A stretch of 64,000 nt of DNA from an uncultured Gammaproteobacteria bacterium (GCA_964358085.1 CAYHNU010000001.1:11220-75219); one strand, 5' to 3'. Shown: positions 4,268 through 52,064, numbered from the stretch's first letter. Made by a program: numbers and translations. Notes: generated by a model from the letters alone, not told the origin.

Positions 4268-4270
4268 CAA

Positions 4271-4300
4271 TTGATATTAAGCTCACGGACCTCGTATAAT
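4271..4300 (+). promoter_or_regulatory. Candidate sigma70-like promoter (TTGATA - 18 bp - TATAAT) in the divergent gap, driving the long plus-strand operon
   Basis: ttgata at 4271-4276 and tataat at 4295-4300, with an 18-bp spacer. ATG of the downstream gene at 4310. Confidence 0.3.
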
Positions 4301-4309
4301 CAAGTCTAC

Positions 4310-33017: not shown

Positions 33018-34040
33018 GCCTAAGACCTTCTTGATAATCTCTCGTCCCTTACTTCTACTTATAAATCCCCATAACAAAACGTCAGTTATAACCAAAGATA
33101 CTACTGGTCTCCACATAAAAGCCCAGTCGGATTTGACAAATGATTCCCACAATCCTCTCACTAGTTCCGGAAAAAATAAATTTGCATAGACAATCCAGTA
33201 AATAATCTTATCCAGGTCCTTCGGACTGTTAATATCAAACCAAGCATATTTTTTGTCGGTTGTAGAGAAATAATTACCATCCAAGTTTCTTAATCTTTTC
33301 TTGATTAAGTTCCTAAGGCTGGTTACATGATAATGTCTTAATTTTGCTTTCGGCACGTAAGCAAAATTGTGCCAACCGGCTGCTACCACTACCTCCAAAG
33401 CATCAAGATCATAAAAACCCGCTATTTTATCCACCTCTGTTTTCAATAGTTCCTTTTTCTTGTACATAATTCTTCCGCAGGGGGGAATCTTGCCCGGTTC
33501 GAACCAACATAGCTGATAGTTATCAAACTCAGCCACTACAGTATTGGCAATATCATTGGAAAAGAAACGATAAATTGGATCCCTCTGTAATGGGTCATGA
33601 GAAATAAATCGTAAAAGCGAATTGTCTATCTTTGGCAGGCAATCCAAGGCAAACTCTTTGGTAAAACTACCAACTATTTCCTGATCCTTAAGCATTGGCT
33701 CAATCATTAATTGAAAAAAGTTATCTACACATATTTCCATATCCGCGTCCATAAAATAAACAAATTCTCCTCTCGCCATTCTTAATCCAAGCCCTTTATT
33801 AAATTCGGTCCAATACGAGACTGGATGTTGATGTTTACTACGATCGATGTCTATAATTTCTGCTCCGAATTTCCGAGCTAACCCATTGGATCCATCCGTC
33901 GATCCATCGTCCATCAACAAATACTCGATCCTTTCCCTTGGATAAGTCTGTTTAGCTAGGGATGTAAACAATCTCTGCAGATTCTGTTCCTCGTTCAAGA
34001 CTGGTATAATTATCGACAATAAAGGCTTAATAGAACTCAT
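33006..34040 (-). CDS. GT2 glycosyltransferase
   Basis: 'LSIIIPVLNEEQNLQRL', 'LMDDGSTDGS', 'FMDADM'. 344 aa with a C-terminal hydrophobic segment. Confidence 0.6.
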   Translation of the reverse strand: MSSIKPLLSIIIPVLNEEQNLQRLFTSLAKQTYPRERIEYLLMDDGSTDGSNGLARKFGAEIIDIDRSKHQHPVSYWTEFNKGLGLRMARGEFVYFMDADMEICVDNFFQLMIEPMLKDQEIVGSFTKEFALDCLPKIDNSLLRFISHDPLQRDPIYRFFSNDIANTVVAEFDNYQLCWFEPGKIPPCGRIMYKKKELLKTEVDKIAGFYDLDALEVVVAAGWHNFAYVPKAKLRHYHVTSLRNLIKKRLRNLDGNYFSTTDKKYAWFDINSPKDLDKIIYWIVYANLFFPELVRGLWESFVKSDWAFMWRPVVSLVITDVLLWGFISRSKGREIIKKVLGLSQ

Positions 34041-34078
34041 GTTGTTAATTTATACTCGTATCAATTATATCCTACAAT

Positions 34079-34759
34079 ATGGATAAGAAGGATTTTTTAG
34101 GGATTACCTCCGTACCTATTGATGAATATCTAAAGCATGACTACTATCAAAAAATAATCGAATATATACGGGGAAAAAAGCTTCTGGATGTGGGCTGTAT
34201 CGATGACGGTCAAGACGATGTAAACAAGGTTAGACTTTGGAATCATTGGCTATTGTTTAAGGTAAGCAAAAGTATAACTGGCATTGACGTGCGGGTTGGT
34301 CCCATCAAGCAATTGAAGCAAATAGGGTTTAATGTTGTCAGGATGGATGCTCAAAATATGAGGTTCAAAGACAAATTTGAAGTGATTTTTGCGGGCGAAT
34401 TGATCGAGCACCTACCCAACCCAGGGCTATTCCTGCGCAGTGCAGCCAACTTGCTAGACAAGAATGGGTTGATAATATTATCTACACCCAACCCCTTTTC
34501 CCTAAACAGAATAGTGAGAGTATTCCAATCTCTGACCAATGAGCCCGCCGTAAATCCTGATCATACTATGTACTTATCACCCCAAAACATTCGGACTTTG
34601 GCAAAAAAATGCGATTTGGCCGTAATAAGAATTGATTACGCCCACTTTCCATTTACGCGCAACAATCTATTAATTATTTTAAACAAAATCGGCTGCAAAC
34701 TTATTGGCGACAGGTTCAAAGAACAAATGTTAGTTTTTATCCAAAAAAGTTATAGATGA
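34079..34759 (+). CDS. Putative SAM-dependent methyltransferase (atypical motif I)
   Basis: 'KKLLDVGCIDDGQDD' and 'FEVIFAGELIEHLPNP' (methyltransferase motifs I and post-II). 226 aa. Confidence 0.45.
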   Translation: MDKKDFLGITSVPIDEYLKHDYYQKIIEYIRGKKLLDVGCIDDGQDDVNKVRLWNHWLLFKVSKSITGIDVRVGPIKQLKQIGFNVVRMDAQNMRFKDKFEVIFAGELIEHLPNPGLFLRSAANLLDKNGLIILSTPNPFSLNRIVRVFQSLTNEPAVNPDHTMYLSPQNIRTLAKKCDLAVIRIDYAHFPFTRNNLLIILNKIGCKLIGDRFKEQMLVFIQKSYR

Positions 34760-35520
34760 ACCCGTTTACAAAGACTCCGTTTTATCACTATTTTTTAGCT
34801 TTTGACTTAATTTCTAATCCAACAGCTAAAGTGTTAGACTTCGGCTGCGGCAGCGGCCAGTTCCTAGGAAAGTTACACGCGAAGGTCAAAAATGTATACG
34901 GTTACGACGTGGACCCGGAAAAAATTAACTTAGCACAACATCTCCATCCCCATGTCAAATTTAAATTAGGTAGAGTTGGTGCGCCTTTACCATATCCAGA
35001 TGCAACATTTGATGTTGTCAACATGTTTCATATCTTAGAACATGTATCCTCGGAAACAATGGCCATATTAGAAACCCATAGGCTGCTTAAAAAAAATGGC
35101 CTTCTTTTTCTAGCTTCACCTTATCAGGGACTTTTTTCTTGGGCAGATGCGGCGAACCTTCGATACCGCTTTCCCAACCTTCACAAATGGTTTTTTATTA
35201 CTTTTTTGGGAAAATATGAATATGAAAGACGATTTGTTAGTCGTCGTTCAATTGGAATGTATGGCGACTGTACAGATAATCGAAACTGGCACAAGCACTA
35301 CACCGAAGGAGAATTGCGCCAACTACTTGGAAATAAATTTACCATTACTGAAGTTCATAAGTTTTCGCTCTTTTATCCATTCCTGCTTATTCCCTACAAC
35401 TTAATCAACTATTTTTTTAAACCCAAATTCAACTCCATTCTTTGGCTGATTCACTTGGACAACTTAATTAATGCCGGAGGATGGTCTTACAATTTCCTAA
35501 TTGTAGCCAGAAAAAAATGA
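34756..35520 (+). CDS. Class I SAM-dependent methyltransferase
   Basis: 'VLDFGCGSGQFLGKL', 'FDVVNMFHILEHV'. ATGA overlap. Confidence 0.6.
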   Translation: MNPFTKTPFYHYFLAFDLISNPTAKVLDFGCGSGQFLGKLHAKVKNVYGYDVDPEKINLAQHLHPHVKFKLGRVGAPLPYPDATFDVVNMFHILEHVSSETMAILETHRLLKKNGLLFLASPYQGLFSWADAANLRYRFPNLHKWFFITFLGKYEYERRFVSRRSIGMYGDCTDNRNWHKHYTEGELRQLLGNKFTITEVHKFSLFYPFLLIPYNLINYFFKPKFNSILWLIHLDNLINAGGWSYNFLIVARKK

Positions 35521-37508
35521 AATGGTTTCTCACTAGCATTGTTCTATCCTTAAGTTTAGTAGCCATTTGGATGGGGCCCAAAAAGATGTTGGCTCATGCG
35601 GAAGAAGGTCTGCCATTTTATAATCCCTCACGCACTTTCCAAATATACAAGTATATCTGGCAAGACTCGAATTTGGGATTCATTAACCCCTTCTTAACTT
35701 CCAGGCTCACGCTTTACGGGTTCTCTGCCTGGCTTAATTCATTTGAGATCCCTAGCCAGGAGTTGTTTTTCTTTATATTAATTTTAACCCCCCTTGTCGT
35801 TATTCCTCCTCTATCCCAAACTCTCTTTCCCACCTTAAATGGCTCGGTTGGAAAATTTGCCGCTCTTTTTTATGTTTTTAACCTATTTGTCCTAACTCAA
35901 GTCTGGCACCGCTTCATCTACCCGCTGATTTTCCTGTGGTCATATCTCCCTTTGTTTCTTCTACTCTGGCTTAAATGGTTGGAAACAAGAGAAAAGAAGT
36001 ATTTATTTTATTTCATATTATCCAATTTCATTTTTTCAGATGTTTACGGATTAACCTCTTCCATCTTTGCTCTCTGGATACCGGCTGGAATTCTCTGGTT
36101 CAAGAACAGGCGAATCATTCCGGCCGTGGTAGCAATATTTCTCTGGTTAGTGACAACCGTTTGGTGGTGGTACCCATTAGTTGCCATAAAAGATAATCGC
36201 TTTAATAAATTTTTAAACCCGGCTCAAAATTTAATCTCACTTGTAGATGTCAGTAAATACTATCTTAATTCCGACATTTTATTATTAAAGCAAAAATATT
36301 ATTTTTCTCCCCAAACCATCTGGTTCAACTTTTTTTCCCGCCTACCCATAAATTATCTTAGCTGGATTTTTCCCATCTTACTTGCAATTGGTTCAGTTTG
36401 GGCTATCAAATCCAGATCAGGCAGACTATTAATTATTTGGCTTGTAATTGGTTGGTTTTTTATCAAAGGAGCCAATCCTCCTTGGGGTACCCAATTTTAC
36501 GAATGGTTGTTTAAGACCTTTCCCTTCACCATGGTCGTACGCAATCCCTACGAGAAACTTGGAGTGATTTTTCTTCTCCCTTATTGTCTGCTCATGGCTT
36601 TCGGTCTTTCCCGCATTCCACTCCGCTTCGGTAAGATACTTGTGATTTTTCTTGTCGGTTTTGTTTTACTGCGCCCCATGTGGACAGGCCAGGTTTTTTC
36701 CGGCTACCAAGTCCAAGTGCCTTCTTCATATAGTTTAGCAAATAGTTATCTTAACTCCGGTAGCAATTTACGTCTTTTGCAACTACCCTTTTTGCACGGA
36801 GCCGGGACCCAATACACCTGGGGTTATGGCGGCGAAGAACCGTCCAACTTCTTCTTTGATCGTCCATCCCTCTCTGGCACTTACTTTTCTCCCACCGATC
36901 CCTACTTATTTCTTTACAAATACATGCGTTCTCCCAAGACTTACCGCCTGCTCCAGCTCCTTGCTGTAGACACCATAGTTCTTCACAAAGATACTTTACC
37001 GGGACCAGCTTATCAGGAAAACTATGCTGGCTCTCGGGCCCTGCTTAGCCAAATGGAGCATATAAGTCTTGCTAAAACATTCCCCGATCTAGATATTTAC
37101 CAATTAAATCCCAATTTGCCAATTGGCTGGGGATATTTATCAAATCGGACGTTTTCCATCCCATCTCTTTCAGACGGCTTTGATTTGGTAGTCAACAACG
37201 ATTTGTTTAAACTCCATAGCGACTCGTTTGTGCTTTCACCCCAAAACCCAAAGAATCTTGGCGATAGCTTACCAAACTACACCATTACCAAGTTGTCACC
37301 AATTCGATACCTTTACCGCATCAAGCAAGCCACCTCCCCTTATATACTTATTTTGTCCCAAAATTTTAATCTCGGCTGGACGGCCGCCATAGATAAAAAA
37401 GAACTAGAAAATCATTTCCCAATTAATGGGTACGCCAATGGTTGGCTAGTTGATAAACCTGATGACTATGTTATTGATGTAAGTTTTAAAGCCTGGCCAT
37501 GGGATTAA
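35517..37508 (+). CDS. Large polytopic membrane protein with C-terminal extracytoplasmic domain (GT-C-like candidate)
   Basis: About 663 aa. N-terminal multi-TM domain. C-terminal '...FNLGWTAAIDKKELENHFPINGYANGWLVD' resembles the C-termini of the giant proteins ('GFANGWEIN', 'GYANLWEIN'). ATG at 35517 overlaps the upstream TGA. Confidence 0.5.
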   Translation: MKWFLTSIVLSLSLVAIWMGPKKMLAHAEEGLPFYNPSRTFQIYKYIWQDSNLGFINPFLTSRLTLYGFSAWLNSFEIPSQELFFFILILTPLVVIPPLSQTLFPTLNGSVGKFAALFYVFNLFVLTQVWHRFIYPLIFLWSYLPLFLLLWLKWLETREKKYLFYFILSNFIFSDVYGLTSSIFALWIPAGILWFKNRRIIPAVVAIFLWLVTTVWWWYPLVAIKDNRFNKFLNPAQNLISLVDVSKYYLNSDILLLKQKYYFSPQTIWFNFFSRLPINYLSWIFPILLAIGSVWAIKSRSGRLLIIWLVIGWFFIKGANPPWGTQFYEWLFKTFPFTMVVRNPYEKLGVIFLLPYCLLMAFGLSRIPLRFGKILVIFLVGFVLLRPMWTGQVFSGYQVQVPSSYSLANSYLNSGSNLRLLQLPFLHGAGTQYTWGYGGEEPSNFFFDRPSLSGTYFSPTDPYLFLYKYMRSPKTYRLLQLLAVDTIVLHKDTLPGPAYQENYAGSRALLSQMEHISLAKTFPDLDIYQLNPNLPIGWGYLSNRTFSIPSLSDGFDLVVNNDLFKLHSDSFVLSPQNPKNLGDSLPNYTITKLSPIRYLYRIKQATSPYILILSQNFNLGWTAAIDKKELENHFPINGYANGWLVDKPDDYVIDVSFKAWPWD

Positions 37509-38245
37509 AAACAAAAAAATTTAAAAATTGGATCATATCATATCTAAATGAAGCTGAATTAGACGAAATGTTAAAAGAACTTTATGAAAAGAAATACTAC
37601 GATTGGCAAAGTTCAAAAAGTGATCCTGTAATTTTCGATGTAGGCGCATTGATTGGAGAAACAGTTCTATATTTTAAAGAGTTATATCCCAAGGCTCGAA
37701 TCACTGCCTTTGAGCCCAGTCCTCGTAGTTTTAAACTGCTCGAAAGAAACGTTTCTCAAAATCACCTTTCTAATGTCCGTTTAATTAATGTCGCGGTGGC
37801 AAAAAATAACGGGAAAATGAATTTTTATATCAGTAAATCTGAAAATAATCCCTGGGGGAGGGGAGATTCGTTGAAAGAAAACAGATTCAATAACAAGAAA
37901 AAATCTAAAGTAATTAAGGTTTCAACAGTGAAGCTGTCCGATTATATAAAAGAGAAAATAGACTTGCTTAAACTTGACATCGAAGGAGCCGAGACTGAAG
38001 TTATTCAAGAAATTGAACCAAGGCTAAAACATGTTAAACAAATAATTTTAGAATTTCATGCCAGCGTTTATAATCCTGAAAATAGTTTACCTAAAATCAT
38101 GGAAATTTTGAAAAAACATGGATTTAAGACTAAAATCTATCTTAGCCGTTGGTTATTGCCGAATTTTGCTGCCAGTTCAATACTAATATTTTTATCAATC
38201 CTTAAAATAGATGAATATTGGCTTCGTATCTATGCAAAGCATTAA
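37499..38245 (+). CDS. FkbM-family SAM-dependent methyltransferase
   Basis: 'IFDVGALIGETVLYFKELYPKARITAFEPSPRSF', 'KLDIEGAETEV'. Confidence 0.6.
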   Translation: MGLKTKKFKNWIISYLNEAELDEMLKELYEKKYYDWQSSKSDPVIFDVGALIGETVLYFKELYPKARITAFEPSPRSFKLLERNVSQNHLSNVRLINVAVAKNNGKMNFYISKSENNPWGRGDSLKENRFNNKKKSKVIKVSTVKLSDYIKEKIDLLKLDIEGAETEVIQEIEPRLKHVKQIILEFHASVYNPENSLPKIMEILKKHGFKTKIYLSRWLLPNFAASSILIFLSILKIDEYWLRIYAKH

Positions 38246-38804
38246 TGAACATTTTATTTCGTCGGGTAAGTTGATCAAGCAATCACTATCCAAGTTACGC
38301 GACCCCATCAGTCAAGCAGCCAAGTTAATCTCTAAAACTTTTAACTCCGGAGGAAAACTTTTGATTTGTGGTAATGGGGGAAGTGCGGCCGATTCTCAAC
38401 ATTTTGCAGCTGAACTGGTAGGGCACTATTTGACGGAACGAAAACCATTAGCGGCCATAGCCCTTACCACCAACACTTCTTCGTTAACAGCAATAGGAAA
38501 CGATTACGGATTTGATAAAGTTTTTTCTCGCCAAGTTGAGGCATACGCAACAAAAGGCGATGTGCTTTTTTGTATTAGTACCAGCGGTAACTCCGCAAAT
38601 GTAATTGCCGCCGCCAAAACTGCTAAATCATTACAAGTCAAAACAATTGGTCTGACAGGCAACAAGGGAGGTAAGCTAAAATCCCATTGCGACATTAATC
38701 TCATTGTTCCATCAAACCATACTCCCTTTATTCAGGAAATTCATCTCGTTACTATACACATAATCTGCGATCTGGTAGAATCAGGTCTTCTTTCTTCGAT
38801 ATGA
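38232..38804 (+). CDS. gmhA: Sedoheptulose-7-phosphate isomerase (SIS domain, GmhA-like)
   Basis: 'GGKLLICGNGGSAADSQHFAAELVG', 'GDVLFCISTSGNSANVI'. About 190 aa. Confidence 0.7.
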   Translation: MQSINEHFISSGKLIKQSLSKLRDPISQAAKLISKTFNSGGKLLICGNGGSAADSQHFAAELVGHYLTERKPLAAIALTTNTSSLTAIGNDYGFDKVFSRQVEAYATKGDVLFCISTSGNSANVIAAAKTAKSLQVKTIGLTGNKGGKLKSHCDINLIVPSNHTPFIQEIHLVTIHIICDLVESGLLSSI

Positions 38805-40522
38805 AAGTCGTAATCTTATGTGAAGGCTTTGGCACTAGGCTGTCGTCAATAGTTTCCGATAGACCCAAACCTTTAGCCCCGATTGCGGGAAAACCTTTCA
38901 TAGAACACGTCATAAAATGGCTTTGTAGGTACGGTTACAAAGACATAATTTTCTGTGTTAGCTATAAGGCTGACCAAATTATAAAATTTGTGGGAGATGG
39001 TAAGAAATTCGGTATCAAGGCAACATATTCCAGAAGATCCCAACCTTCGGGAACAGGTGGGGCTATCAAGTTTGCCAGTCAACTCTTAAATGGCAAAGAT
39101 GAAAGAGTATTGGTACTTAATGGAGACACTTTATTTGACATTAACTTAAATAAATTTGTTGAATTTCATGATAAAAATAAATCGTTTGCAACTATCGCCC
39201 TTAGTCACGTTTTGGATGTGCATCAATACGGGGAAGTCAGTATCGATTCCGGCTATCAACTAACCAAATTCAGCGAAAAAAACCCAGAAAGCCTATTAAA
39301 TCCCCATGCCGGATTGGTTAATGGTGGTGTCTATCTGCTCAGCCGGGAAGCCTTAAATATATTAAGCAATCTCCAGCCCCCTTTCTCGATAGAGAAAGAC
39401 TTTTTCTCTGTTCAGGTTAACACCCAAAAGATCTTCGGATACGTTTCAGACATAACCCATTACGATATGGGGACACCGTCTGGTTATCGCAAAACTGACA
39501 GAATTTTAAGCGGACAGGAAGAAATCATTATTCGCAGCCGGGCTCCGTTAAGAATTTCTTTTGGAGGGGGAGGCACTGATGTGCCGCCTTTCGATCAAAA
39601 ATATGGCGGCTGTGTGCTTAATTGCACGATCAATAAGTATGTTTATGGTTTACTGAAGCTTCGTGACGACAAAAAAATAAGATTGGTTTCTTCAGACTAT
39701 CGTTTGTCGGTTGTATACAGTGACATTAAGCACTTGGAATTTGATGGACACCTGGACCTCATAAAAGGAATAATCAAGAGGGTAGATGTCAATTATGGAT
39801 TTGAACTTGAAATCAGATCGGATGTCCCACCCAATAGCGGGATGGGATCAAGCGCCAGCGTTTGTGTAGCCGTTATAGGTCTGTTTAACCATTTATTAGT
39901 TGAAAGCAAAATGACTAAATCTCAAATCGCTGAACTTGCATACAAAGTAGAAGTGGAAGATCTCAAAAACCATGGAGGAAGACAGGATCAATACGCTTCG
40001 GTATATGGGGGGCTTAATCTTTTTGAATTCAGAGGAGGCGATTTTGTCAAAGTTAGCCCTTTAAACCCAAAGAGAGAGATCTTTCTCGAGTTAGAAAGGA
40101 ACACTGTATTAGTCTACACGGGGAAAAGAGGAATTTCCGGATTACAACATGACAATAATGAAATTTCTCTACGCAAAAGAACCGAATATTTACAGGCAAT
40201 AAAAATTTTAGGATATGAATCATTTGATTCTTTAATGAGGGGGGATATAAATCGGTTCGGAAATATACTTGAGGAAACTTGGGAGTTAAAGAAAAAAGCA
40301 TTCCCTCAATCAAGCAACAAGTATATTGATTCTTTGTATTTAGCTGCAAAAAAAGCCGGCGCCATTGGAGGGAGAGTAGCCGGTGCGGGGGGCGGGGGAC
40401 ATATGGTCTTTTATTGCCGTCCCGGGACTGAGCATAAGGTGACTAAAGTGTTACAAGCCATGGGTACCAAGTCAGTAGATTTTAGTTTTGATTACCAAGG
40501 ATTAGAAACATGGGAAGTTTGA
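38801..40522 (+). CDS. Bifunctional heptose-1-phosphate nucleotidyltransferase (N-terminal, HddC-like) / D-glycero-D-manno-heptose-7-phosphate kinase (C-terminal GHMP kinase, HddA-like)
   Basis: N-terminal 'MKVVILCEGFGTRLSSIVSDRPKPLAPIAGKPFIEH' (NTP_transferase). C-terminal 'PPNSGMGSSASVCVAVIG' (GHMP ATP motif) and 'AGAGGGGHMVFYC'. 573 aa fusion. ATGA overlap with gmhA. Confidence 0.6.
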   Translation: MKVVILCEGFGTRLSSIVSDRPKPLAPIAGKPFIEHVIKWLCRYGYKDIIFCVSYKADQIIKFVGDGKKFGIKATYSRRSQPSGTGGAIKFASQLLNGKDERVLVLNGDTLFDINLNKFVEFHDKNKSFATIALSHVLDVHQYGEVSIDSGYQLTKFSEKNPESLLNPHAGLVNGGVYLLSREALNILSNLQPPFSIEKDFFSVQVNTQKIFGYVSDITHYDMGTPSGYRKTDRILSGQEEIIIRSRAPLRISFGGGGTDVPPFDQKYGGCVLNCTINKYVYGLLKLRDDKKIRLVSSDYRLSVVYSDIKHLEFDGHLDLIKGIIKRVDVNYGFELEIRSDVPPNSGMGSSASVCVAVIGLFNHLLVESKMTKSQIAELAYKVEVEDLKNHGGRQDQYASVYGGLNLFEFRGGDFVKVSPLNPKREIFLELERNTVLVYTGKRGISGLQHDNNEISLRKRTEYLQAIKILGYESFDSLMRGDINRFGNILEETWELKKKAFPQSSNKYIDSLYLAAKKAGAIGGRVAGAGGGGHMVFYCRPGTEHKVTKVLQAMGTKSVDFSFDYQGLETWEV

Positions 40523-41337
40523 AATGCTTACTAGCTAATACTGGGGATATGGCGCTAAAACGCCGAGCCAGAAGAATAATTACCGAGCTAGACCCCAAGT
40601 CCGGAGACAAGATTCTGGATATCGGTTGTGGAGATGGCTACTATCTTCATATTCTCTCCCACTTAAACATTTCCAACCTGAACCTGTCCGGCACAGATAA
40701 TGACATTAATGGGTTAAATAAAACCAGAAAAAATCTCGATAATCCGAAAATCAAAGTTTATCCTGGCGATTTGATGAAAAAACTCCCATTTGAAAATAAC
40801 AGTTTCGATAAAGCAGTTATGTCCGAAGTAGCCGAGCATTTGCCAAACGACATCAAAGGACTCAAGGAAGTCTACCGAATTCTTAAGCCAGGTGCGATTC
40901 TAAGTCTCACGGTGCCCCACGCAAACTATCCCCTTCTTTGGGACCCACTAAATTGGCTACTCGAAAGGTTATTCGGTGTTCATGTTAAATCTGGTTTCTT
41001 TGCCGGACTTTGGAATCAACATATTCGGCTATATCAGCCCGCTCAAATAGAACGCGTTTTGAAAAAAGCCGGTTTCAAAGTAGAGAAACTTGAATCACTC
41101 ACCTTTTGGTGTTTACCCTTTAACCATTATTTGGTCAACCTCGTCGCACGCTATCTTGCCCGTCAATATAGACAGGGTACTCCAAATGTTTCACTTAATA
41201 AATTTACAATCGCTTCTGCCAAACCATTTTTACTAAATGCTGCCTTTTACATTGTTAATCTCCTAGATCGTCTTAACGATATTTTGCAGCCAAGAGGCAT
41301 TGGAGTTTCGGTATTTGTAAAAGCGATTAAAGTATGA
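40510..41337 (+). CDS. Class I SAM-dependent methyltransferase
   Basis: 'KILDIGCGDGYYLHIL', 'FDKAVMSEVAEHLPND', 'LKPGAILSLTVP'. Confidence 0.6.
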   Translation: MGSLKCLLANTGDMALKRRARRIITELDPKSGDKILDIGCGDGYYLHILSHLNISNLNLSGTDNDINGLNKTRKNLDNPKIKVYPGDLMKKLPFENNSFDKAVMSEVAEHLPNDIKGLKEVYRILKPGAILSLTVPHANYPLLWDPLNWLLERLFGVHVKSGFFAGLWNQHIRLYQPAQIERVLKKAGFKVEKLESLTFWCLPFNHYLVNLVARYLARQYRQGTPNVSLNKFTIASAKPFLLNAAFYIVNLLDRLNDILQPRGIGVSVFVKAIKV

Positions 41338-42158
41338 AGCAGCTAATAGCAAAGATTTGCGACAATCTTTGTTTTGATAAAATATTTTTACTTACTGAGA
41401 ATTTGTCTCTTTTGGAGAAAGTAAAGTATACATTCAGAAAATATTTAACAATAATATTTGGACGGAAAGAAATAGTATATTTAGGTAAGGTTTTCAAATT
41501 TGATAACTCCTTTACTCCAGTGCTTTTGCAAAGTTATCCCCATGAGATTGGTACATTGGATAGAGAAATAAATTTGAATACGATTCATTCGGTTTTGGAT
41601 ATAGGGGCAAATATAGGTCAGTGGTCATTCACATTGAAGTCTTTATTTTCTCATCTGAACGTAATATCACTTGAGCCTAACCCTAAAGTTTTTCCCCTGT
41701 TGCGCGAGAATGCAAAGGGTTTTTCTAAGTGGAAATGTTACAATTTTGGGGTAGGTGATGGGGGTAGACACAAGTACATATATTATTCAGGGAATGGCTC
41801 TTCAGAAGCTAGTATTTATAACAAAATTAGCACCAACAATAAGAAAAAAGATAAAATAGTACCAGTACGCCTAGTAGTTTTAAATAATGGAAAAATAGGT
41901 GGAACTCAAATACCCAATTCGTTTGATTTAGTAAAAATTGACACTGAAGGGTCTGAGCTTGAAGTGTTACATTCAATTAGTAAACTTCATTTTAAGTACT
42001 TGGAAGTAGAAGTATCACTTAAACGAAATAGAGGAGTAACTGTAAAGGATGTCAAAAACTTTTTTAAAAGGCATACTCGTTTTCAGCCAAAATTATTACA
42101 TTTAGATATATTTAATAGTAATTCACCTGTAGCTGATGCAATTTTTTCATTAACATGA
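41334..42158 (+). CDS. FkbM-family SAM-dependent methyltransferase
   Basis: 'VLDIGANIGQWSFTLKSLFSHLNVISLEPNPKVF', 'KIDTEGSELEVL'. ATGA overlaps at both ends. Confidence 0.6.
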   Translation: MKQLIAKICDNLCFDKIFLLTENLSLLEKVKYTFRKYLTIIFGRKEIVYLGKVFKFDNSFTPVLLQSYPHEIGTLDREINLNTIHSVLDIGANIGQWSFTLKSLFSHLNVISLEPNPKVFPLLRENAKGFSKWKCYNFGVGDGGRHKYIYYSGNGSSEASIYNKISTNNKKKDKIVPVRLVVLNNGKIGGTQIPNSFDLVKIDTEGSELEVLHSISKLHFKYLEVEVSLKRNRGVTVKDVKNFFKRHTRFQPKLLHLDIFNSNSPVADAIFSLT

Positions 42159-43363
42159 AGATAAATAAGATTTATTTTTGGTCAATGGCTTCCCATGGCG
42201 CTGGAATTTCTGGAGGCGACAGAATCTTTATGGAATTTGTCAAAAGATGGAGGACAAAGCATCCAGTTACGGTTGTAACTTGGGCAGAAGGGGAGTCCAT
42301 GATGGCTAGAAACAACCTTCTTGAATCCGCAAATGTTTCCTTTCAACGTCTATTGGTTCCAAAAATTATTCGCTTTAATTTTTTATTGTGCTATCTATAT
42401 AGAATAATTATTGGTATTTTCACTGCACTAACCATGCGTCTTGATAGCCCATTAGAACTGTATTTATATTCCTCTTCCGAGTTTTGGATGGACTCACTAC
42501 CTTCTTTTATTTTAAAACTTCGTTACCCCACTATCAATTGGATTGCAACCTGGTACCAAACCGCTCCAAATCCTCTTGTTGGTTTTTCAAATGGCCGTTA
42601 TCGCATAACGGCTTTATTACTATGGCTTTCTCAATTACCAATTAAGCCATTAATTGGTAATTTTGCCGATGTTGTTTTGGTAAACAACGATACCGAAAAA
42701 AAGATATTCCCAAAATCTCAAACAATTGTAGTTTTGGGCGCAGTTGACACCAAACTGATTGAAACCTATATTGCTAAAAATCCTAAAACAAAAAAGAAGT
42801 ATGCAGCTGTCTTTCAAGGTAGATTTCATCCCCAAAAAGGAGTAGTGGAACTCATAGATGTATGGAAAAAAGTGGTTGAGAAAATCCCGGATGCCAAATT
42901 GGCCATGATAGGGGATGGCCCGCTTATGGAAAGTGTGAAATTAGAAATTAGAAATTTGAAATTGGAGAATAATGTTAAATTGTTAGGATATGTTTTTGAC
43001 GGCGATGAGAAATACAAACTATTTGCTCAAAGCAAAATTGTAGTTCACCCGGCCTTTTATGATTCTGGGGGTATGGCCTCGGCTGAAGCTATGGCCTTTG
43101 GTTTACCTTGCATAGGCTTTAATTTACCCGCTTATGAATCGTATTATCCCAAAGGTATGATTAAAATCCCCATCGGTGACTTGAATTCCTTTGCTGAAAC
43201 GATAGTTGACCTACTTAAAAATAATTCCAAACGAAATCTCGTGGGGAATCAGGCGGGAAAATTTATTCGTGGGTCTTATTCTTGGGACTATCGTGCTCGA
43301 GAGATTTTACGGCAAATAGTTGGAACGACAAATCCGGAAAGAAAAAAAGTAGAATCTCAGTAA
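42155..43363 (+). CDS. GT4 glycosyltransferase
   Basis: 'FQGRFHPQKGVVELIDVWKKV', 'HPAFYDSGGMASAEAMAFGLPCIGFNLPAY'. Contains the 28-bp (gaaattN)x4 element at 42937-42964. Confidence 0.6.
   Translation: MKINKIYFWSMASHGAGISGGDRIFMEFVKRWRTKHPVTVVTWAEGESMMARNNLLESANVSFQRLLVPKIIRFNFLLCYLYRIIIGIFTALTMRLDSPLELYLYSSSEFWMDSLPSFILKLRYPTINWIATWYQTAPNPLVGFSNGRYRITALLLWLSQLPIKPLIGNFADVVLVNNDTEKKIFPKSQTIVVLGAVDTKLIETYIAKNPKTKKKYAAVFQGRFHPQKGVVELIDVWKKVVEKIPDAKLAMIGDGPLMESVKLEIRNLKLENNVKLLGYVFDGDEKYKLFAQSKIVVHPAFYDSGGMASAEAMAFGLPCIGFNLPAYESYYPKGMIKIPIGDLNSFAETIVDLLKNNSKRNLVGNQAGKFIRGSYSWDYRAREILRQIVGTTNPERKKVESQ
42937..42964. repeat. 28-bp heptad element gaaatta-gaaatta-gaaattt-gaaattg, in frame within the GT4 gene (encodes LEIRNLKL)
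   Basis: Direct read of the sequence. Near-identical copy at 11516-11543. Confidence 0.8.
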
Positions 43364-43964
43364 CAGCCGAAAATAACCCCCAAAATATCCAAGGAGAGAA
43401 TCTGATTGATGCTTCGTCGTTTCGTAAATATTTAAGTCCTCTCAAGCCATATACTTGGTACCCCATATCTTGGAGGTCTTTTTTACTCCAACCTGAATGA
43501 TGAACTTGATACGGATTGCCATCATACGCCTTTTGATCAATGTAGCCTTGAGGAGTCATTAATATAACTTTTTTACGCGCGATCTTCTCCATCTGGGAAA
43601 TCATTTTTAAGGCCTCTTGCTTTGTTAAGTGCTCGATAACATCGATTGATATTAAGGTGTCAAAACTTTTATTTTTGTAATACTTACCTAGTTTTCTTAC
43701 ATCTCCTAATTTGTAAGTATCGTGATAGTGATTTCTTTTGCTAATCTCTATGCACCTAGGATAGATGTCAATTCCCTCACTGGAAAAAGTTTTAGCAAGT
43801 CTTCCCAGAGATGAGTCATTGCCACATCCAACATCCAGAACGCTTTTTGAGTTAGCCAATTCTTTTTCCAGTCTTGAAAAAAAGAAAATATTTTCAAATT
43901 GGCGAAAAAAATTTTTAAATCGTTCTTTTTTATTGTGATTTAGAAAAAGCTTTGGAAAATTCAT
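43263..43964 (-). CDS. Class I SAM-dependent methyltransferase
   Basis: 'VLDVGCGNDSSLGRLAKTF', 'FDTLISIDVIEHLTKQE'. ATG chosen at 43964 (reverse complement); the ORF extends to 44018. 3' end overlaps the convergent gene 42155..43363 by about 100 bp. Confidence 0.5.
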   Translation of the reverse strand: MNFPKLFLNHNKKERFKNFFRQFENIFFFSRLEKELANSKSVLDVGCGNDSSLGRLAKTFSSEGIDIYPRCIEISKRNHYHDTYKLGDVRKLGKYYKNKSFDTLISIDVIEHLTKQEALKMISQMEKIARKKVILMTPQGYIDQKAYDGNPYQVHHSGWSKKDLQDMGYQVYGLRGLKYLRNDEASIRFSPWIFWGLFSAVTEILLFFFPDLSFQLFAVKSLEHDSPKNKTHE

Positions 43965-45144
43965 TATCCCAAGTATTGACTTTTGCAAATTTAAGTAATA
44001 CTTTATGCATCTTAACATATAATATTGGGCTAGAAAACAGTGTTATAACAGCGTCGGTCAGCCCCTCTTTGTTGTCCGGAGCAATGATAGATCCCCCTAT
44101 TTCTTGTAAATTTTTTCCCAATGGCGGTACCGCAGTGGTAATAATTGGTAGCCCTGCTGCGGCATATGATCTCATTTTTGAAGCGTCGGCATATTTTCTA
44201 GTAGAGTCTGGAAAATCTCGATATGGAGCAACTGCTACATAGCAATGGCTAAGAATTTCTGCCATATCAATGTTTTTTACAACATAACCGTAAAAAACCA
44301 CCTTAGATTCGATTCCCAAAGATTTAACCAAGTTTTTCAATCGTTCAAGGTTTTTTTGTCCACCTCCAATAACGTGGAGTGTTGTTTTAGCAAATTTTTT
44401 AAGAACCAAAGGCATGGCCTCAATTGCTAGATCAGGTCCACTTTCTTCTCCAAGCGTTCCCATGTATACGAGAGAAAAAGGAAGCCGTTTATTTATAGGG
44501 GCAGAAAGTAATTGTTGTGGGTATATTCCAATAGGAACATGGATGACCGGAGATGATTTCTTTTCATCTAAGCCCAATGCAATTCTGGCTGGTTGCATAG
44601 CTTTTGATACGTCCCAAATGTAATCAGCGTGTACGGCACAATATTGATCTAAGAATAAATATATTTTATTAAAGATACCTTTGTATCTGCTTGGCGAATA
44701 GTCCAAGACATAGTATATGACTTTATTAACTTTTCCCAATTTCTTTAGTATTATGCCGGCTAACGTGTTAATACATTCTAGTCCAATGAAATAATCGTAT
44801 TTGAATTTATTCATAAGTGTCCAATCAAACACAGAAAAGAAATCTCTTATCTTGAAAAAAAGCTGTGTCCCTTGAAAATTAGTCAATTTTAAAAAGGGCA
44901 ATAATAAAAACATCCACCAAGAAGAAGAATGGGAAACGTATTTTAATTGTTGATTGGAATACTCTTCAATTATCGGCATGACGACCTCACTTCCTGGGTG
45001 TGGCTGATCAATCAGGACAAGACGTTTAACGCGGGGCACTAAGAAATCCCTCAAGGGTTCAACGTTTCCATTGGTTGGCATACGTGTGCCGTTTGTCCAC
45101 ATGGAAAACGTTACAAATAGTATCGTTGAGTTTTTAGATAGCAT
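43930..45144 (-). CDS. GT4 glycosyltransferase
   Basis: 'LHVIGGGQKNLERLKNLV', 'VAPYRDFPDSTRKYADASKMRSYAAAGLPIITTAVPP'. Confidence 0.6.
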   Translation of the reverse strand: MLSKNSTILFVTFSMWTNGTRMPTNGNVEPLRDFLVPRVKRLVLIDQPHPGSEVVMPIIEEYSNQQLKYVSHSSSWWMFLLLPFLKLTNFQGTQLFFKIRDFFSVFDWTLMNKFKYDYFIGLECINTLAGIILKKLGKVNKVIYYVLDYSPSRYKGIFNKIYLFLDQYCAVHADYIWDVSKAMQPARIALGLDEKKSSPVIHVPIGIYPQQLLSAPINKRLPFSLVYMGTLGEESGPDLAIEAMPLVLKKFAKTTLHVIGGGQKNLERLKNLVKSLGIESKVVFYGYVVKNIDMAEILSHCYVAVAPYRDFPDSTRKYADASKMRSYAAAGLPIITTAVPPLGKNLQEIGGSIIAPDNKEGLTDAVITLFSSPILYVKMHKVLLKFAKVNTWDNEFSKAFSKSQ

Positions 45145-46207
45145 TTAAATTAGCTAAAAAGATAGATGCCGTTTTTTTCCAACTGAAAGCAGAAGCACGT
45201 TTTAATCCCTTTTCTTTAAGGCTATTTCGAAGGTTCTTGTCTTTTAAAGTTTTAAGCATTGCCGTTGTTAACTCCGTTTGGTTTTTCACCAAAATTCCTG
45301 CATCTCCTACTAATTCCGTAAGCGAAGAATTGGCATATGAGATCACCGGAGTCCCACACTTCATGGCTTCTAAAATAGGCAGGCCAAATCCTTCGTACAG
45401 TGAAGTACAAACAAATATGTCTGCTCCACAATATAAACTAGACAATTGGGAATAATCTGGCCTGCAAACGTAGATAATTTTATCGTAAATACCTAATTTT
45501 TTTGATAACTGAACGATTTCTTGATAATTTTTGCCTTCTGTGATGCCCACAATTACCAATTGAAGGGATTTATTTAACTGTTCACATACTTCCGAAAAAG
45601 CCAATAATAAGTCGACCATATTTTTTCGAGGAATGAATGTGCCGGGAAATGCAAGGGCAAACGGTTGATTAATGTTGTATTGTTTTAAATTGATCACTAT
45701 TTTCTGAGTAGGTTGAATACAAATTTCATCTGGTGAAGCAAGAGGGGTTATAAAAATCTTATGGGGGTCAATTTTTAGAATTTTAATAATGTCGTTTTTG
45801 GAGTTTTTGGAGAATGTAGATATCTTTACAGCTCTGTGAGCTGAAATAAAATACATGATAAATAAATAAATCTTAGTTATACCCAAGATACCAGAATCGT
45901 AAACAAACGACATGTCTGGAATAGTCAGGACTATGGGAACAGAAAGTAAAAATGGTATGGGTGGATTTAAAAAAATACCTATGTTGAATTTTTTTTCTCT
46001 AAATACATTAAACAATTTAATTTGTAACCAATATTGTTCGCTGATCAACCACCACAACCCTCCCCAACGCTTTGTTGTTTGATCTTTTAAAATAAAATAT
46101 TGATTTTTCTTGTCAATTATTCGTAGATTATTAATCAACCTTTGGGCATAGACGGCCATACCACCTTTGTGGTTAGATACAATTCTAAAGTCTACTCCAA
46201 TATTCAT
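45134..46207 (-). CDS. GT4 glycosyltransferase
   Basis: 'MNIGVDFRIV...', 'VCTSLYEGFGLPILEAMKCGTPVISYANSSLTELVGD'. Confidence 0.6.
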   Translation of the reverse strand: MNIGVDFRIVSNHKGGMAVYAQRLINNLRIIDKKNQYFILKDQTTKRWGGLWWLISEQYWLQIKLFNVFREKKFNIGIFLNPPIPFLLSVPIVLTIPDMSFVYDSGILGITKIYLFIMYFISAHRAVKISTFSKNSKNDIIKILKIDPHKIFITPLASPDEICIQPTQKIVINLKQYNINQPFALAFPGTFIPRKNMVDLLLAFSEVCEQLNKSLQLVIVGITEGKNYQEIVQLSKKLGIYDKIIYVCRPDYSQLSSLYCGADIFVCTSLYEGFGLPILEAMKCGTPVISYANSSLTELVGDAGILVKNQTELTTAMLKTLKDKNLRNSLKEKGLKRASAFSWKKTASIFLANLNAI

Positions 46208-46223
46208 ATGTTAAGATTCTAGC

Positions 46224-48449
46224 ATGAGAAAAGTAATTATTATTCTAATAATATTGGCACTCGGTATTACCCCATTACTTACACAGGGTAATTTATATTT
46301 TGTAGGAGGAGACGACATGAGACTTTACTACATGTATCCCAAGGAATACATCCAAAATTTACTTTTGAATATAGTAACCGACAATTCAATTAGTGGAGGC
46401 AATATGGGCTACTATCCTGCCACCCATCCGGTTCCTCTAGTTGCATTAATATGGTTGGTAAAGACGCTAGTGCCTGCTAATACGCAGTTTGTTATGTATG
46501 GAATAAATTGGTCATTGTCCTTCCTCTTCTTCTACTTATTAATGGGTTTCTGGATATCAGATAAGTCTCGATTCAGTTTTTTTGCCAAAGTGGCTTCATG
46601 TCTGATTTATATATTTTCCCCATTTCTGTTCATGACCTTCTATAAACATCAAATGATCGTATTATTTTTAATAACCGCTTTCCCGGGGGTATTATATTTT
46701 TTTATCAAAAGTGTTCGACAACGTAATCCCCTATACGTTTTTTCGGCTTGTTTAATAATCTCTATCTTTAGTACTAATCTAAGCTCAATTCCGTGGATGC
46801 TTCCAATGTTTATTACAAGTACCCCATTGTTGTTTTGGGAGTTTTATAAGGACAAAAAGACTTTCTTTTGGCATGCCATTATTTTTGTAATTTGCTACTT
46901 TTTATTAAATATTTCCTGGATATTCCATTTAGTTTACTTGACTATCTATAATACTGGTTTAGTAGATGGTTTGAGTAGCTATCTTACGCCAGAGTTTTTG
47001 AAAGCAAATATTGCTGGTATTTTGGGGACATCCCGCCAATACAGTCCACTTAATGGTGTAGTTAGTCAACTGGTTATTGGGCTTACAAAAAACCTAACTA
47101 TAGTTTCATATGTCAATTTAATATTTATTTTCTTGATTGTTGCAGCTGGAGTTTTTATCAAAAAAGAGAGAAACAATATTTTAATTTCAGGATTCATTTT
47201 GGGTTTATTATCGCTACTTATTTCATGGATCATGTTAGCTCCCAATATTCAGACTTGGGGGCCTGATGCGTTCATCTGGTTATCTCTTAGAGTGCCCTTC
47301 TTTACCATGTTTAGAAATATGTCTGATAAATTTGCCTTACCAATGGCCTTTTTTTATGCTCTAACTTTGGGATCAAGCTTGGTAATTTTGGCCAATAGGT
47401 TTGCCAACAAGGCCTTACGATTGATTGTGCGTTGTTCGCTAAGTGTTGTAATTTTGATAAATATTTATCCACTACTGCAAAATCGATCTGAACATGTTGG
47501 GGTGGCAGCCAAGATGTCAGGTAGTTTTAATGATGATTTTAATGCCTTGGCTGATTATTTATTGACGTTAAAGAACCCATCAAGAATATTGTGGTTGCCA
47601 CTAAACTTTCCATCTTTTATTAATATTGAAGACAAGTATAATCCCGGTCATTATTACTCTGGCCCTTCACCCTTGCGTTTTTTAAGCAATCGTCAAGATT
47701 ATGCTGGACAATTTAGTTTTATTTCTTCAAATGACTTTGGAATTGCTGATAAGATTTTTCCTATGATAGATGCCAAAGATTTTAAAAGTTTTGGCAAACT
47801 AATTCAATTACGAAACGCGAGATATATCATTTTAGATAAGCAACAGCTTCCGGAGACTATGAAGCCATATCTTTATAACCACTACAGCATTGAATATGGG
47901 AAGTTAAAGATGCAAACAGAAGAATTTGTTAATGAATTCATTGGAAAGAAGCTTCAAGAATTTGGCACACGCTATGTTTTATATGAGATTAATCCGAAAT
48001 ATAATAATGATCGAATATATTTAACTGATAGTTACGAAATTTTTCCTAAAAACTTGCCAAATATTGAATACGAAAAAGTATCTGATTCTTTATACAATAT
48101 TAGCCTGAAAAGTATTAGTAAATCACGGAAATTAGTGTTTTTGGACTCTTACTATAAAGATTGGACACTTTATGTAAAAGGAGATTCAGAGACAAAGGCA
48201 TACCAAAAAGGTAAAAACGTTCCTGTCCAAGGATTTGCCAACGGTTGGGAAATTAATTTAGATGAGATTATAAAGAATTTTTCCAAGGGTTACTATACTA
48301 CCAACATGGACGGGTCAATAAATATTAAAATGACTCTCTACTTCGAACCCAGCAAATATAACAAGCCTACGCGTATTATTAGCGCGATGACCTTTGTAAT
48401 ACTTGGTTTGTCTCAATTGATTTTACTTGCAAAAAGAAACAATGTTTAA
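46224..48449 (+). CDS. Giant polytopic membrane protein, paralog 1 of 3 (GT-C-like; YfhO/AftD-type architecture hypothesis)
   Basis: 741 aa. 'LYFVGGDDMRLYYMYPKEY', 'FRNMSDKFALPMAFFYAL', C-terminal 'VQGFANGWEINLDEI'. More than 12 TM segments plus a C-terminal soluble domain. Confidence 0.55.
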   Translation: MRKVIIILIILALGITPLLTQGNLYFVGGDDMRLYYMYPKEYIQNLLLNIVTDNSISGGNMGYYPATHPVPLVALIWLVKTLVPANTQFVMYGINWSLSFLFFYLLMGFWISDKSRFSFFAKVASCLIYIFSPFLFMTFYKHQMIVLFLITAFPGVLYFFIKSVRQRNPLYVFSACLIISIFSTNLSSIPWMLPMFITSTPLLFWEFYKDKKTFFWHAIIFVICYFLLNISWIFHLVYLTIYNTGLVDGLSSYLTPEFLKANIAGILGTSRQYSPLNGVVSQLVIGLTKNLTIVSYVNLIFIFLIVAAGVFIKKERNNILISGFILGLLSLLISWIMLAPNIQTWGPDAFIWLSLRVPFFTMFRNMSDKFALPMAFFYALTLGSSLVILANRFANKALRLIVRCSLSVVILINIYPLLQNRSEHVGVAAKMSGSFNDDFNALADYLLTLKNPSRILWLPLNFPSFINIEDKYNPGHYYSGPSPLRFLSNRQDYAGQFSFISSNDFGIADKIFPMIDAKDFKSFGKLIQLRNARYIILDKQQLPETMKPYLYNHYSIEYGKLKMQTEEFVNEFIGKKLQEFGTRYVLYEINPKYNNDRIYLTDSYEIFPKNLPNIEYEKVSDSLYNISLKSISKSRKLVFLDSYYKDWTLYVKGDSETKAYQKGKNVPVQGFANGWEINLDEIIKNFSKGYYTTNMDGSINIKMTLYFEPSKYNKPTRIISAMTFVILGLSQLILLAKRNNV

Positions 48450-51926: not shown

Positions 51927-52064
51927 TTTTTTTTCGTTTTTTTTGGCTTTAACAAGTCTTCTGTTGTGGTTTGGAAAGACGGCTAAAGCTCAATTTTTGA
52001 TAGAGATAGCTTTTGGCGTGATTGCAACATGTTTAGTTAGTTATTTATTTAGATTGACCAGAAA

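Follow-up and report, generated by a model that had tools for sequence, protein, structure and literature searches.

In a 64,000-nucleotide stretch of metagenomic DNA (GCA_964358085.1, CAYHNU010000001.1:11220-75219; here called the window), we identified a gene pair that probably, although by no means certainly, serves the activation of alpha-heptose. The first gene, gmhA, encodes a putative D-sedoheptulose-7-phosphate isomerase; the second encodes a 573-amino-acid (aa) fusion protein in which an HddC-like nucleotidyltransferase (NTase) precedes an HddA-like GHMP kinase. The host is a Candidatus Amesbacteria-like (Microgenomates, Patescibacteria) ultra-small groundwater bacterium, and both genes lie inside a very large cell-surface glycosylation island. 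In the four-step pathway that we favor, the fusion would cover steps 2 and 4, and the phosphatase of step 3 would be encoded outside the island. The fusion represents known chemistry and known domains; what is newly documented here is a clade of such fusions in bacteria of the candidate phyla radiation (CPR), the replacement of the guanine determinant by two residues that covary, and the exchange of alpha- and beta-heptose cassettes at a fixed slot.

The proposed pathway would begin with the conversion of sedoheptulose-7-phosphate to heptose-7-phosphate by GmhA, as its family assignment suggests. The HddA domain, which retains the catalytic and sugar-binding residues of its family, would then use ATP to phosphorylate O1, yielding alpha-heptose-1,7-bisphosphate. 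In step 3, a 7-phosphatase from outside the island would remove the 7-phosphate, and in step 4 the HddC-like domain would join heptose-1-phosphate to a nucleoside triphosphate (NTP), yielding a nucleoside diphosphate (NDP)-heptose; this NTP may be one other than GTP, used in its place or alongside it. The activated heptose would then presumably be passed on by one of the island's glycosyltransferases and receive O-methyl groups from the FkbM and class I methyltransferases encoded on either side. Our assignment of steps 1, 2, and 4 is based on family membership and conserved catalytic residues.

Gene organization and the isomerase

The two genes and the parts of the fusion discussed below are as follows.

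38211..38804, + strand: gmhA (SIS fold, D-sedoheptulose-7-phosphate isomerase), 197 aa
38801..40522, + strand: HddC-like plus HddA-like fusion gene, 573 aa
38801..39505, + strand: NTase domain, HddC-like, residues 1-235
38822..38824, + strand: Glu8 codon, replacing the first Gly of the GGxGTR nucleotide loop (Gly9 in Yersinia HddC)
39035..39037, + strand: Arg79 codon, equivalent of the guanine-reading Glu80 in Yersinia HddC
39527..40519, + strand: GHMP kinase domain, HddA/WcbL-like, residues 243-573

An internal ATG in gmhA at 38232 gives a 190-aa product, the version annotated on the source contig. At the junction of the two genes, tcgatATGAaagtc, the ATG of the fusion gene (38801-38803) overlaps the TGA of gmhA (38802-38804) in the form ATGA. 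A sequence-only reading of this DNA had described an SIS isomerase gene translationally coupled to a 573-aa fusion gene; the open reading frames (ORFs) and their overlap are as it described, and the overlap is consistent with the coupling, which we infer from it. Both motifs quoted in that reading are likewise present in the fusion, GxGTRL as G9-F-G-T-R-L14 and PPNSGMGSSAS as P343-P-N-S-G-M-G-S-S-A-S353. Pfam places NTP_transferase at residues 2-231, GHMP_kinases_N at residues 320-404, and GHMP_kinases_C at residues 476-553.

The fusion is not an assembly artifact, because at least 12 contigs, drawn from several samples, carry the identical 573-aa protein and the same two-domain architecture recurs in dozens of homologs with 38-93% identity. 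An AlphaFold model of the fusion (14 homologs; mean predicted local distance difference test score, 85.7) consists of two folded domains with no third domain; the orientation of the domains relative to each other is unreliable in this model (predicted template modeling score, 0.66), and substrate channeling is not claimed.

The GmhA protein scored 222.9 bits against the gmhA equivalog model TIGR00441 (cutoff, 209.45), which places it within that family, and it matched SIS_2 (E = 3e-31) as well as SIS in Pfam. Its homologs in Microgenomates contigs are 63-97% identical. Beyond Microgenomates, the top matches with a named organism are from Campylobacterota (Helicobacter, Campylobacter, and Aliarcobacter) at about 58-62% identity, which is high for phyla so distant, and horizontal transfer may have shaped the distribution of this gene.

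The kinase half

The identification of the C-terminal half as an HddA-like GHMP kinase held up well. Its best NCBIfam model by a wide margin was HddA (NF049969, 231.9 bits), followed by Fkp (88 bits), mevalonate kinase (76 bits), and galactokinase (69 bits), so that the closer kinship to galactokinase or mevalonate kinase that would speak against this identification was not found. In a search of the PDB, residues 243-573 aligned end to end with three solved HddA/WcbL proteins (3k85, 4n3o, and 4usk; E = 3e-58 to 9e-54, with 3e-58 for 3k85), at an identity of only 32-36%; another PDB search likewise had HddA/WcbL at the top (E = 7e-58 to 1e-53). The kinase half of the model matched the folds of WcbL, Campylobacter jejuni HddA, and 3k85 with template modeling (TM) scores of 0.81-0.90, and those for WcbL and 3k85 were 0.85-0.90.

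Mutagenesis of WcbL has established that R13, D22, S118-S120, Q162, and D163, the last being the proposed catalytic base, are essential (PMC4691232). In the HMMER alignment, WcbL R13, D22, S118/S119, Q162, and D163 correspond to R251, D260, S350/S351, Q395, and D396 of the fusion, all of which are invariant in an alignment of 14 fusions; the third serine position (WcbL S120) is Ala in the fusion, as it is in the family consensus GLGSSAS. Further, the fusion retains 39 of the 40 columns that are conserved in at least 90% of 141 stand-alone HddA homologs, and the one exception, L348M, is conservative. Because the validated WcbL residues and nearly all of these columns are kept, the kinase half can be regarded, as far as its sequence tells, as an ordinary HddA, with catalytic residues and fold in common with HddA/WcbL and with the difference that it is joined to an NTase.

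The NTase half and its nucleotide-base pocket

The N-terminal half, described by the sequence-only reading as an HddC-like NTP_transferase, was also assigned as such in our searches. Residues 1-231 matched HddC best among the NCBIfam models (NF049965, 157.7 bits), with a ManC-type mannose-1-phosphate guanylyltransferase model (143.7 bits) and RmlA-long (99.8 bits) as the runners-up; the NTase is therefore not closer to the glucose-1-phosphate thymidylyltransferases than to HddC, and its lead over the ManC-type model is small. The best PDB match was Yersinia HddC (6jq8/5xhw; residues 1-232, E = 4e-30), to which the NTase half of the model could be superimposed with a TM score of 0.88 and a root mean square deviation (rmsd) of 2.5 Å. 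The catalytic set is kept (G9, G11, T12, R13, L14, K23, D109, E159, K160, and D222), so that the fusion shares the GxGTRL loop, K23, D109, EK159-160, and D222 with Yersinia HddC but differs from it in having Arg79, Glu8, and Ser83.

These differences concern the recognition of the nucleotide base. In Yersinia HddC, Glu80 (motif ExEPLGTGGA) forms two hydrogen bonds to guanine, at N1 and N2, and the replacement E80Q strongly lowers GTP use (PMC6981941). An ungapped alignment to 6jq8 puts Arg79 of the fusion at the Glu80 position (RSQPSGTGGA versus ExEPLGTGGA), and the guanine-reading Glu of HddC is consequently missing. Glu occupies this position in all 27 stand-alone HddCs whose genes adjoin hddA, in 46 of 49 archaeal fusions, and in the 11 proteins that make up the sister subclade (P0009-P0019), whereas none of the nine members of the window's own subclade (66-93% identity) has it; four of these carry Arg and five carry Asn. 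Position 8 behaves in a similar manner, being Gly in 89% of the solo HddCs, 48/49 archaeal fusions, and 11/11 sister-subclade proteins, and being Glu only in the window protein, P0001, P0002, and P0006, always together with Arg79. The covariation of positions 8 and 79 is perfect: Glu8 occurs with Arg79, Gly8 occurs with Asn79, and Gly8 occurs with Glu79 in every other protein compared. Positions 82 and 83 change along with this pair, and Leu84 of Yersinia HddC is Ser83 here.

The Glu80-equivalent position is a general base discriminator of the NTase fold, because the thymine-reading Gln of RmlA, which uses dTTP, aligns there and because the uracil-reading Gln of the UTP-using enzymes GlmU and GalU sits there as well. 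When the 62-aa loop of the base pocket was compared with the PDB, none of the solved NTases had Arg or Asn at this position, and specificity cannot be assigned by analogy. Since the guanine-reading Glu is replaced by Arg79 with a covarying Glu8, GTP as the nucleotide and a GDP-sugar as the product cannot be called with confidence, and the GDP-heptose route to which the sequence-only reading had assigned the enzyme is not secure.

That the fusion is nevertheless a canonical GDP-heptose enzyme with an unchanged preference for GTP appears to us fairly unlikely. It would have to manage without the Glu that bonds guanine twice and whose change to Gln strongly lowers GTP use, in a subclade in which 0/9 members have this Glu and positions 8, 82, and 83 covary with its loss, and at a position that is Gln in dTTP-using RmlA and in UTP-using GlmU and GalU. 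What speaks for unchanged GTP use is that HddC is still the best overall match of the NTase half, that a ManC-type GDP-mannose pyrophosphorylase gene 10 kb downstream points to the use of GDP-sugars in the island, and that in Yersinia HddC several factors set the GTP preference, such that single mutants gained no use of pyrimidines (PMC6981941).

A slot holding either an alpha or a beta cassette

A search with GmhA homologs led to two Microgenomates loci, L091 and L092, that have the gene frame of the window and a different heptose cassette within it. The frame genes of the window and the unusual gene of the other cassette are listed below.

35481..37508, + strand: 675-aa polytopic membrane protein with no Pfam match, upstream frame gene
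37499..38245, + strand: FkbM methyltransferase, left slot border (PF05050, 7e-21); overlaps the gmhA start
40510..41337, + strand: class I S-adenosylmethionine methyltransferase, right slot border (Methyltransf_23/11/25); overlaps the fusion stop by 13 nucleotides
41334..42158, + strand: second FkbM methyltransferase, frame gene (PF05050, 1e-13)
42155..43363, + strand: Glycos_transf_1 (GT4-type) glycosyltransferase, frame gene (PF00534, 3.5e-29)
L091:12628-13656 and L092:8887-9897: HldC (rfaE domain II)::GmhB HAD fusion, 336-342 aa

Four-nucleotide overlaps also occur between the class I methyltransferase, second FkbM, and glycosyltransferase genes. Promoter and terminator scans of 34000-46500 gave counts at the shuffle background (37 versus 37.9 and 9 versus 10.8, respectively) and are uninformative on operon structure.

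Orthologs of the frame genes delimit the slot in several relatives. The 675-aa membrane protein has an ortholog at the same position in L005, L006, L011, L091, and L092 (55-68% identity), the left-border FkbM gene lies directly upstream of the cassette in L005, L006, L091, and L092 (65-71%), and the class I methyltransferase gene directly follows the cassette in L005, L006, L011, L091, and L092 (73-80%). The second FkbM protein has an ortholog of 68% identity in L092 and none in L091. The 42155..43363 glycosyltransferase has orthologs in all syntenic loci (63-75%) and is a candidate user of the activated heptose.

In L091 and L092, the frame runs from a membrane protein of about 666 aa through FkbM and gmhA and, beyond the cassette, through the class I methyltransferase, FkbM (L092 only), and GT1 genes to three minus-strand genes and then a gene for a 741-aa protein. 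The frame proteins are 47-81% identical to those of the window, most of them above 60%, and the GmhA proteins are 63-76% identical. Between gmhA and the class I methyltransferase gene, however, three genes replace the HddC-HddA fusion: the first encodes a member of the GT9 heptosyltransferase family, the second an HldA-type PfkB kinase (TIGR02198, 355.7; cutoff, 345), and the third an HldC-type NTase fused to GmhB (336-342 aa; GmhB domain on NF006506, 191.4; cutoff, 178). A commentary on Tang et al. 2024 lists HENases that stand alone, are joined to a kinase, or are joined to an isomerase/kinase, and an NTase::phosphatase fusion is not among these architectures (PMC11461863).

The gene orders and identities indicate that the slot is exchangeable, holding either an alpha cassette, with neither phosphatase nor GT9, or a self-sufficient beta cassette. 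Heptose cassettes of both types in one slot support the prediction that the island builds a heptose-containing glycan.

Microgenomates also encode stand-alone GmhBs, for example, on an 820-kb Candidatus Daviesbacteria contig, in beta modules with a PfkB kinase and GT9. In Candidatus Daviesbacteria CP066688.1 (L093:8641-10017), a gene for a 458-aa protein that joins a PfkB heptokinase-like domain to a cupin (MannoseP_isomer/Cupin_2) lies directly upstream of stand-alone GmhB and GT9 genes. Neither an SIS-type GmhA nor HldC was found within 10 kb of this gene, and the cupin might replace the isomerase.

Distribution of the fusion

In metagenomes, the fusion occurs in forms of about 570-600 aa, with identities to the window protein from 93% down to 37%, and in a form of about 677 aa in which a CBS pair is inserted between the HddC and HddA halves (P0041 and P0122). 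Where an organism is named, the CBS-bearing fusions belong to DPANN archaea (Pacearchaeota and Nanoarchaeota). Among 50%-identity representatives, full-length fusions account for about a dozen of the best 150 matches. The metagenome locus scan yielded mostly unfused HddA loci and only one further fusion of the same clade (L011), and the genome-contig scan with the fusion protein yielded a single locus, L005 from the nearest reference, Candidatus Amesbacteria GW2011_GWC2_45_19 (LCKS01), with a 93% identical fusion. We found no paper in our literature search that describes an HddC-HddA fusion, and databases name such proteins generically only. The single-polypeptide form that had struck the sequence-only reading is therefore genuine but not rare, being widespread, although without a specific name, and common in CPR and DPANN metagenomes.

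The loci of the relatives bear on how the enzyme operates. In the archaeal-type loci L008 and L009, gmhB immediately adjoins the fusion gene, and the L009 GmhB exceeds the cutoffs of both NF006506 (196.3 versus 178) and TIGR00213 (162.5 versus 149.6). Because a genuine gmhB is adjacent, the fused enzyme evidently works with GmhB in these loci, and fusion in itself would not amount to a bypass of GmhB. In unfused loci, gmhA is usually beside hddA, gmhB is about one gene off, and hddC is often directly upstream of hddA, which is the order of the domains in the fusion. When kinase domains were clustered by identity and UPGMA, solo HddAs were the nearest neighbors of each fusion group, and the kinase of P0058 is 70% identical to one solo HddA; crude as it is, this clustering suggests that the fusion arose several times.

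Closer to the window protein, gmhA adjoins the fusion gene in L011 and lies 1.7 kb upstream of it in L007, and it was not found within 10 kb of the fusion in L005 and L006, where the fusion directly follows the FkbM methyltransferase gene (L005:9232-11722 and L006:9255-11713). The content of the cassette thus appears to vary among near relatives and, since L005 and L006 have no gmhA within 10 kb of the fusion, the pathway genes are not always kept together. An extra minus-strand GT4 gene follows the fusion in L006 and L011.

Two further features of HddA homologs were observed. Those of archaea often carry a CBS pair, placed either N-terminally (P0136, P0152, and P0189, about 450-550 aa) or in the middle of a fusion, which suggests that DPANN archaea regulate heptose activation in response to nucleotides. 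P0192 (1,097 aa) is an HddA homolog split by intein and LAGLIDADG homing-endonuclease domains.

The phosphatase step

We searched for the phosphatase of step 3 in the window, about 10 kb downstream of it (L010), and about 8 kb upstream of it (L095), together about 82 kb of the source contig. This contig (Hain_H41_01um_R3_157, ENA ERZ1292624; 111,441 bp) comes from the 0.1-µm fraction of the Hainich aquifer, and the window spans its positions from about 21.7 to 85.7 kb. Pfam searches of all window ORFs of at least 110 aa revealed neither a HAD protein nor any other phosphatase family, and a strict regular expression for HAD motif I had no match in the six frames of the window. When genuine GmhBs from related loci were compared with all stop-to-stop frames of the window (phmmer --max), the best E value was about 2, and a GmhB hidden Markov model (HMM) built from 111 sequences gave a best E value of 0.85 over the 82 kb; its positive controls (n = 6) scored 189-248 bits. 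The earlier observation that the window has no GmhB is thus borne out by each of these approaches and extends to about 82 kb. That the same slot holds a GmhB-containing beta cassette in sister genomes supports the interpretation that the alpha cassette truly has no phosphatase gene and that none was overlooked in the annotation.

Several candidates were considered and rejected. The unannotated window ORFs at 1208-1783, 23454-24431, and 3047-4270 had no NCBIfam match and no match to the GmhB HMM. A phosphatase domain hidden inside the fusion has no room, as the NTase ends near residue 235, the kinase starts at residue 243, and the model has two domains only. The other fusion partners of HddA proved to be CBS pairs or inteins.

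Some of these results weigh against the four-step pathway as we propose it. No GmhB or any HAD protein was found in the 82 kb around the fusion, and gmhB was not found within 10 kb in the window-clade loci L005, L006, L007, and L011; moreover, the syntenic beta cassette has its own GmhB, suggesting that such cassettes tend to be self-sufficient. With respect to the enzyme, neither half reaches the equivalog threshold of its best model (231.9 versus 600 for NF049969 and 157.7 versus 300 for NF049965), because of which both halves are best described as divergent members of their families rather than close orthologs, and the margin by which the NTase half prefers HddC over ManC-type guanylyltransferases is narrow (157.7 versus 143.7).

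We nevertheless tentatively place the phosphatase elsewhere in the genome because there are precedents for such an arrangement. In C. jejuni, hddC-gmhA-hddA is part of the capsule cluster, and gmhB (Cj1152) is part of the lipooligosaccharide (LOS)/ADP-heptose cluster (PMC10680097); GmhB is only partly required in Escherichia coli and Klebsiella, which have an unidentified redundant activity (PMC9302095); and gmhA is dispersed in the relatives of the window. The likeliest source would be a GmhB encoded elsewhere, possibly in a beta-type module as in C. jejuni, and the alternative would be a redundant phosphatase such as that of E. coli and Klebsiella. An unusual organization of the pathway, which the sequence-only reading had seen as a possible implication of the fusion, does not follow from it, since the C. 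jejuni capsule cluster has no gmhB either and archaeal fusions adjoin gmhB.

Alternatively, the pathway might be independent of GmhB. The NTase would then accept heptose-1,7-bisphosphate and form NDP-heptose-7-phosphate, from which the phosphate would be removed later or which would keep it in the glycan, or an unrelated non-HAD phosphatase would act, and the remodeled pocket would be part of an altered enzyme. Such a route would explain why GmhB is absent near every window-clade member and present with archaeal fusions and in the syntenic beta cassette, and it has parallels in Fkp and DrGKUP, in which the kinase product feeds the NTase directly, and in the heptose pathways of viruses and eukaryotes, which have no dedicated phosphatase (PMC11461863). 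However, the absence of GmhB was established for about 82 kb and not for the whole genome, L005 and L006 have no gmhA close to the fusion either, so that pathway genes are scattered, the clade-specific changes lie in the base pocket and not obviously in the sugar pocket, and we found no precedent for an HddC-type enzyme acting on the bisphosphate; we consider this route unlikely.

It is similarly doubtful that the rebuilt base pocket (Glu8/Arg79 or Asn79) makes a non-GDP NDP-alpha-heptose, possibly without GmhB and directly from the 1,7-bisphosphate. This would be a third way of heptose activation in the Amesbacteria-type subclade, with a cassette that is interchangeable with the beta route and that gives rise to strain-level glycan variation.

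Finally, it is very improbable that the fusion salvages free heptose, mannose, or another hexose in the manner of Fkp, with a gmhA that serves something else or was recently inserted. In favor of such a role, neither gmhA nor gmhB was found within 10 kb of the fusion in L005 (93% identical) and L006, the NTase half scores nearly as high on ManC-type models, and both halves fall below the equivalog cutoffs. Against it, the kinase half has lost none of the heptose-binding and catalytic residues of WcbL, retains 39/40 positions conserved in HddA, and scores 231.9 bits on the HddA model versus at most 88 bits on those of other GHMP kinases; gmhA overlaps the fusion gene here and is adjoining or 1.7 kb upstream in L011 and L007, respectively; and the cassette that fills the slot in sister genomes is unambiguously one for heptose and includes a GT9 heptosyltransferase.

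Comparison with known systems

The four-step alpha-heptose pathway with a fused kinase and NTase invites comparison with HldE, which also carries steps 2 and 4 of a four-step pathway on one chain and leaves the GmhB step to a separate protein. HldE, however, consists of a PfkB kinase and a cytidylyltransferase-like NTase, the folds of which are unrelated to those of the GHMP kinase and NTP_transferase of the fusion; its domain order is opposite, its product is the beta anomer, and its nucleotide is ATP. The fusion matched neither PF00294 nor PF01467 and hence does not belong to HldE, and these PfkB and rfaE-domain-II domains were found only in the L091/L092 cassette and not in the 82 kb searched. 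The fusion is a convergent analog of HldE, neither its homolog nor a reversed HldE. The domain order had been contrasted with that of HldE in the sequence-only reading; this is literally true but carries no meaning, as the enzymes are not homologous and the order is the usual one for Fkp-type proteins.

Indeed, an N-terminal NTase and a C-terminal GHMP sugar-1-kinase on one chain characterize Fkp, the Bacteroides L-fucokinase/GDP-fucose pyrophosphorylase, as well as zebrafish DrGKUP (PMC3938481), and the fusion has this architecture. The similarity is otherwise weak: the kinase part of Fkp aligns with residues 329-551 of the fusion at 62-64 bits, and Fkp, with 949 aa and extra domains, superimposes poorly over the whole chain (rmsd, 29 Å). 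Fkp and DrGKUP salvage free sugars, and their NTase acts directly on what the kinase produces, whereas in the archaeal relatives of the fusion the adjacent gmhB argues against a kinase product that feeds the NTase directly.

A parallel in gene content is the C. jejuni capsule locus hddC-gmhA-hddA (Cj1423-1425), where the alpha-heptose genes are likewise clustered without gmhB and the phosphatase is borrowed from the beta-pathway locus, the LOS cluster (PMC10680097). There, however, the genes are separate and the GDP-heptose product is proven, and the host is a Gram-negative bacterium with lipopolysaccharide (LPS) rather than a CPR bacterium. The L091/L092 beta cassette is found at exactly the same place, bordered by orthologs of the FkbM and class I methyltransferases and with flanks that are 55-81% identical, but has a nonhomologous kinase and NTase, its own GmhB fused to the NTase, and a dedicated GT9, none of which are present in the window cassette. 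In beta-route enzymes, the nucleotide of the NDP-heptose can shift with single residues, and the dedicated phosphatase is missing in viruses and eukaryotes, in a source that does not cover HddC-type enzymes (PMC11461863).

The surrounding glycosylation island

All of the about 82 kb examined belongs to the glycosylation island, which contains many GT2 and GT4 genes, GT87-like and PIG-V-like genes, genes for a Wzx-type flippase, a Wzy-like polymerase, and GtrA, about a dozen methyltransferase genes, an RmlB-like dehydratase gene with a second NTase gene, and a ManC-type pyrophosphorylase gene. At 4271-12005 of the window, five ORFs of about 500-530 aa follow one another in the same direction; several match PMT_2, PTPS_related, or STT3-like GT-C families, and together the five look like a paralogous array of polytopic glycosyltransferases. 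A Bro-N domain protein, of a family typical of phages and viruses, is encoded in the middle of the island at 12007-12843.

A second sugar-nucleotide module is located at 25693-27502, with an RmlB/GalE-like 4,6-dehydratase/epimerase (TIGR01181, 154 bits, below the cutoff) and, next to it, an overlapping gene for a 259-aa NTP_transferase that matches Arch_glmU and rmlA_long best. The ManC-type GDP-mannose pyrophosphorylase gene lies just past the end of the window (L010:20552-). At 46224-54647, three very large ORFs (741, 1,067, and 860 aa) have no Pfam match; the 741-aa and 1,067-aa proteins have orthologs of 56-80% identity in those syntenic loci that extend this far, and all three may be proteins of the surface or S-layer type that the island glycosylates. 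Scans of the window for tRNAs and Rfam families found nothing.

Implications

The chemistry of heptose activation is established textbook knowledge where LPS, capsules, and S-layer glycans are concerned, and NDP-heptoses have recently gained importance as innate-immune agonists with varying nucleotide moieties. CPR (Patescibacteria) bacteria are without LPS. Our findings do not overturn the known logic of the pathway. The missing GmhB makes the dispensability of the 7-phosphatase step directly testable. If our interpretation is correct, an HddC-type lineage has dropped its guanine determinant, which predicts an undescribed NDP-alpha-heptose and provides, with Glu8 and Arg79, a two-residue hypothesis for NTP specificity. 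It would also mean that LPS-less CPR bacteria invest in heptose-containing, probably methylated, surface glycans and that the swapping of alpha- and beta-heptose supply cassettes at a fixed slot would offer them a simple route to the diversification of these glycans.

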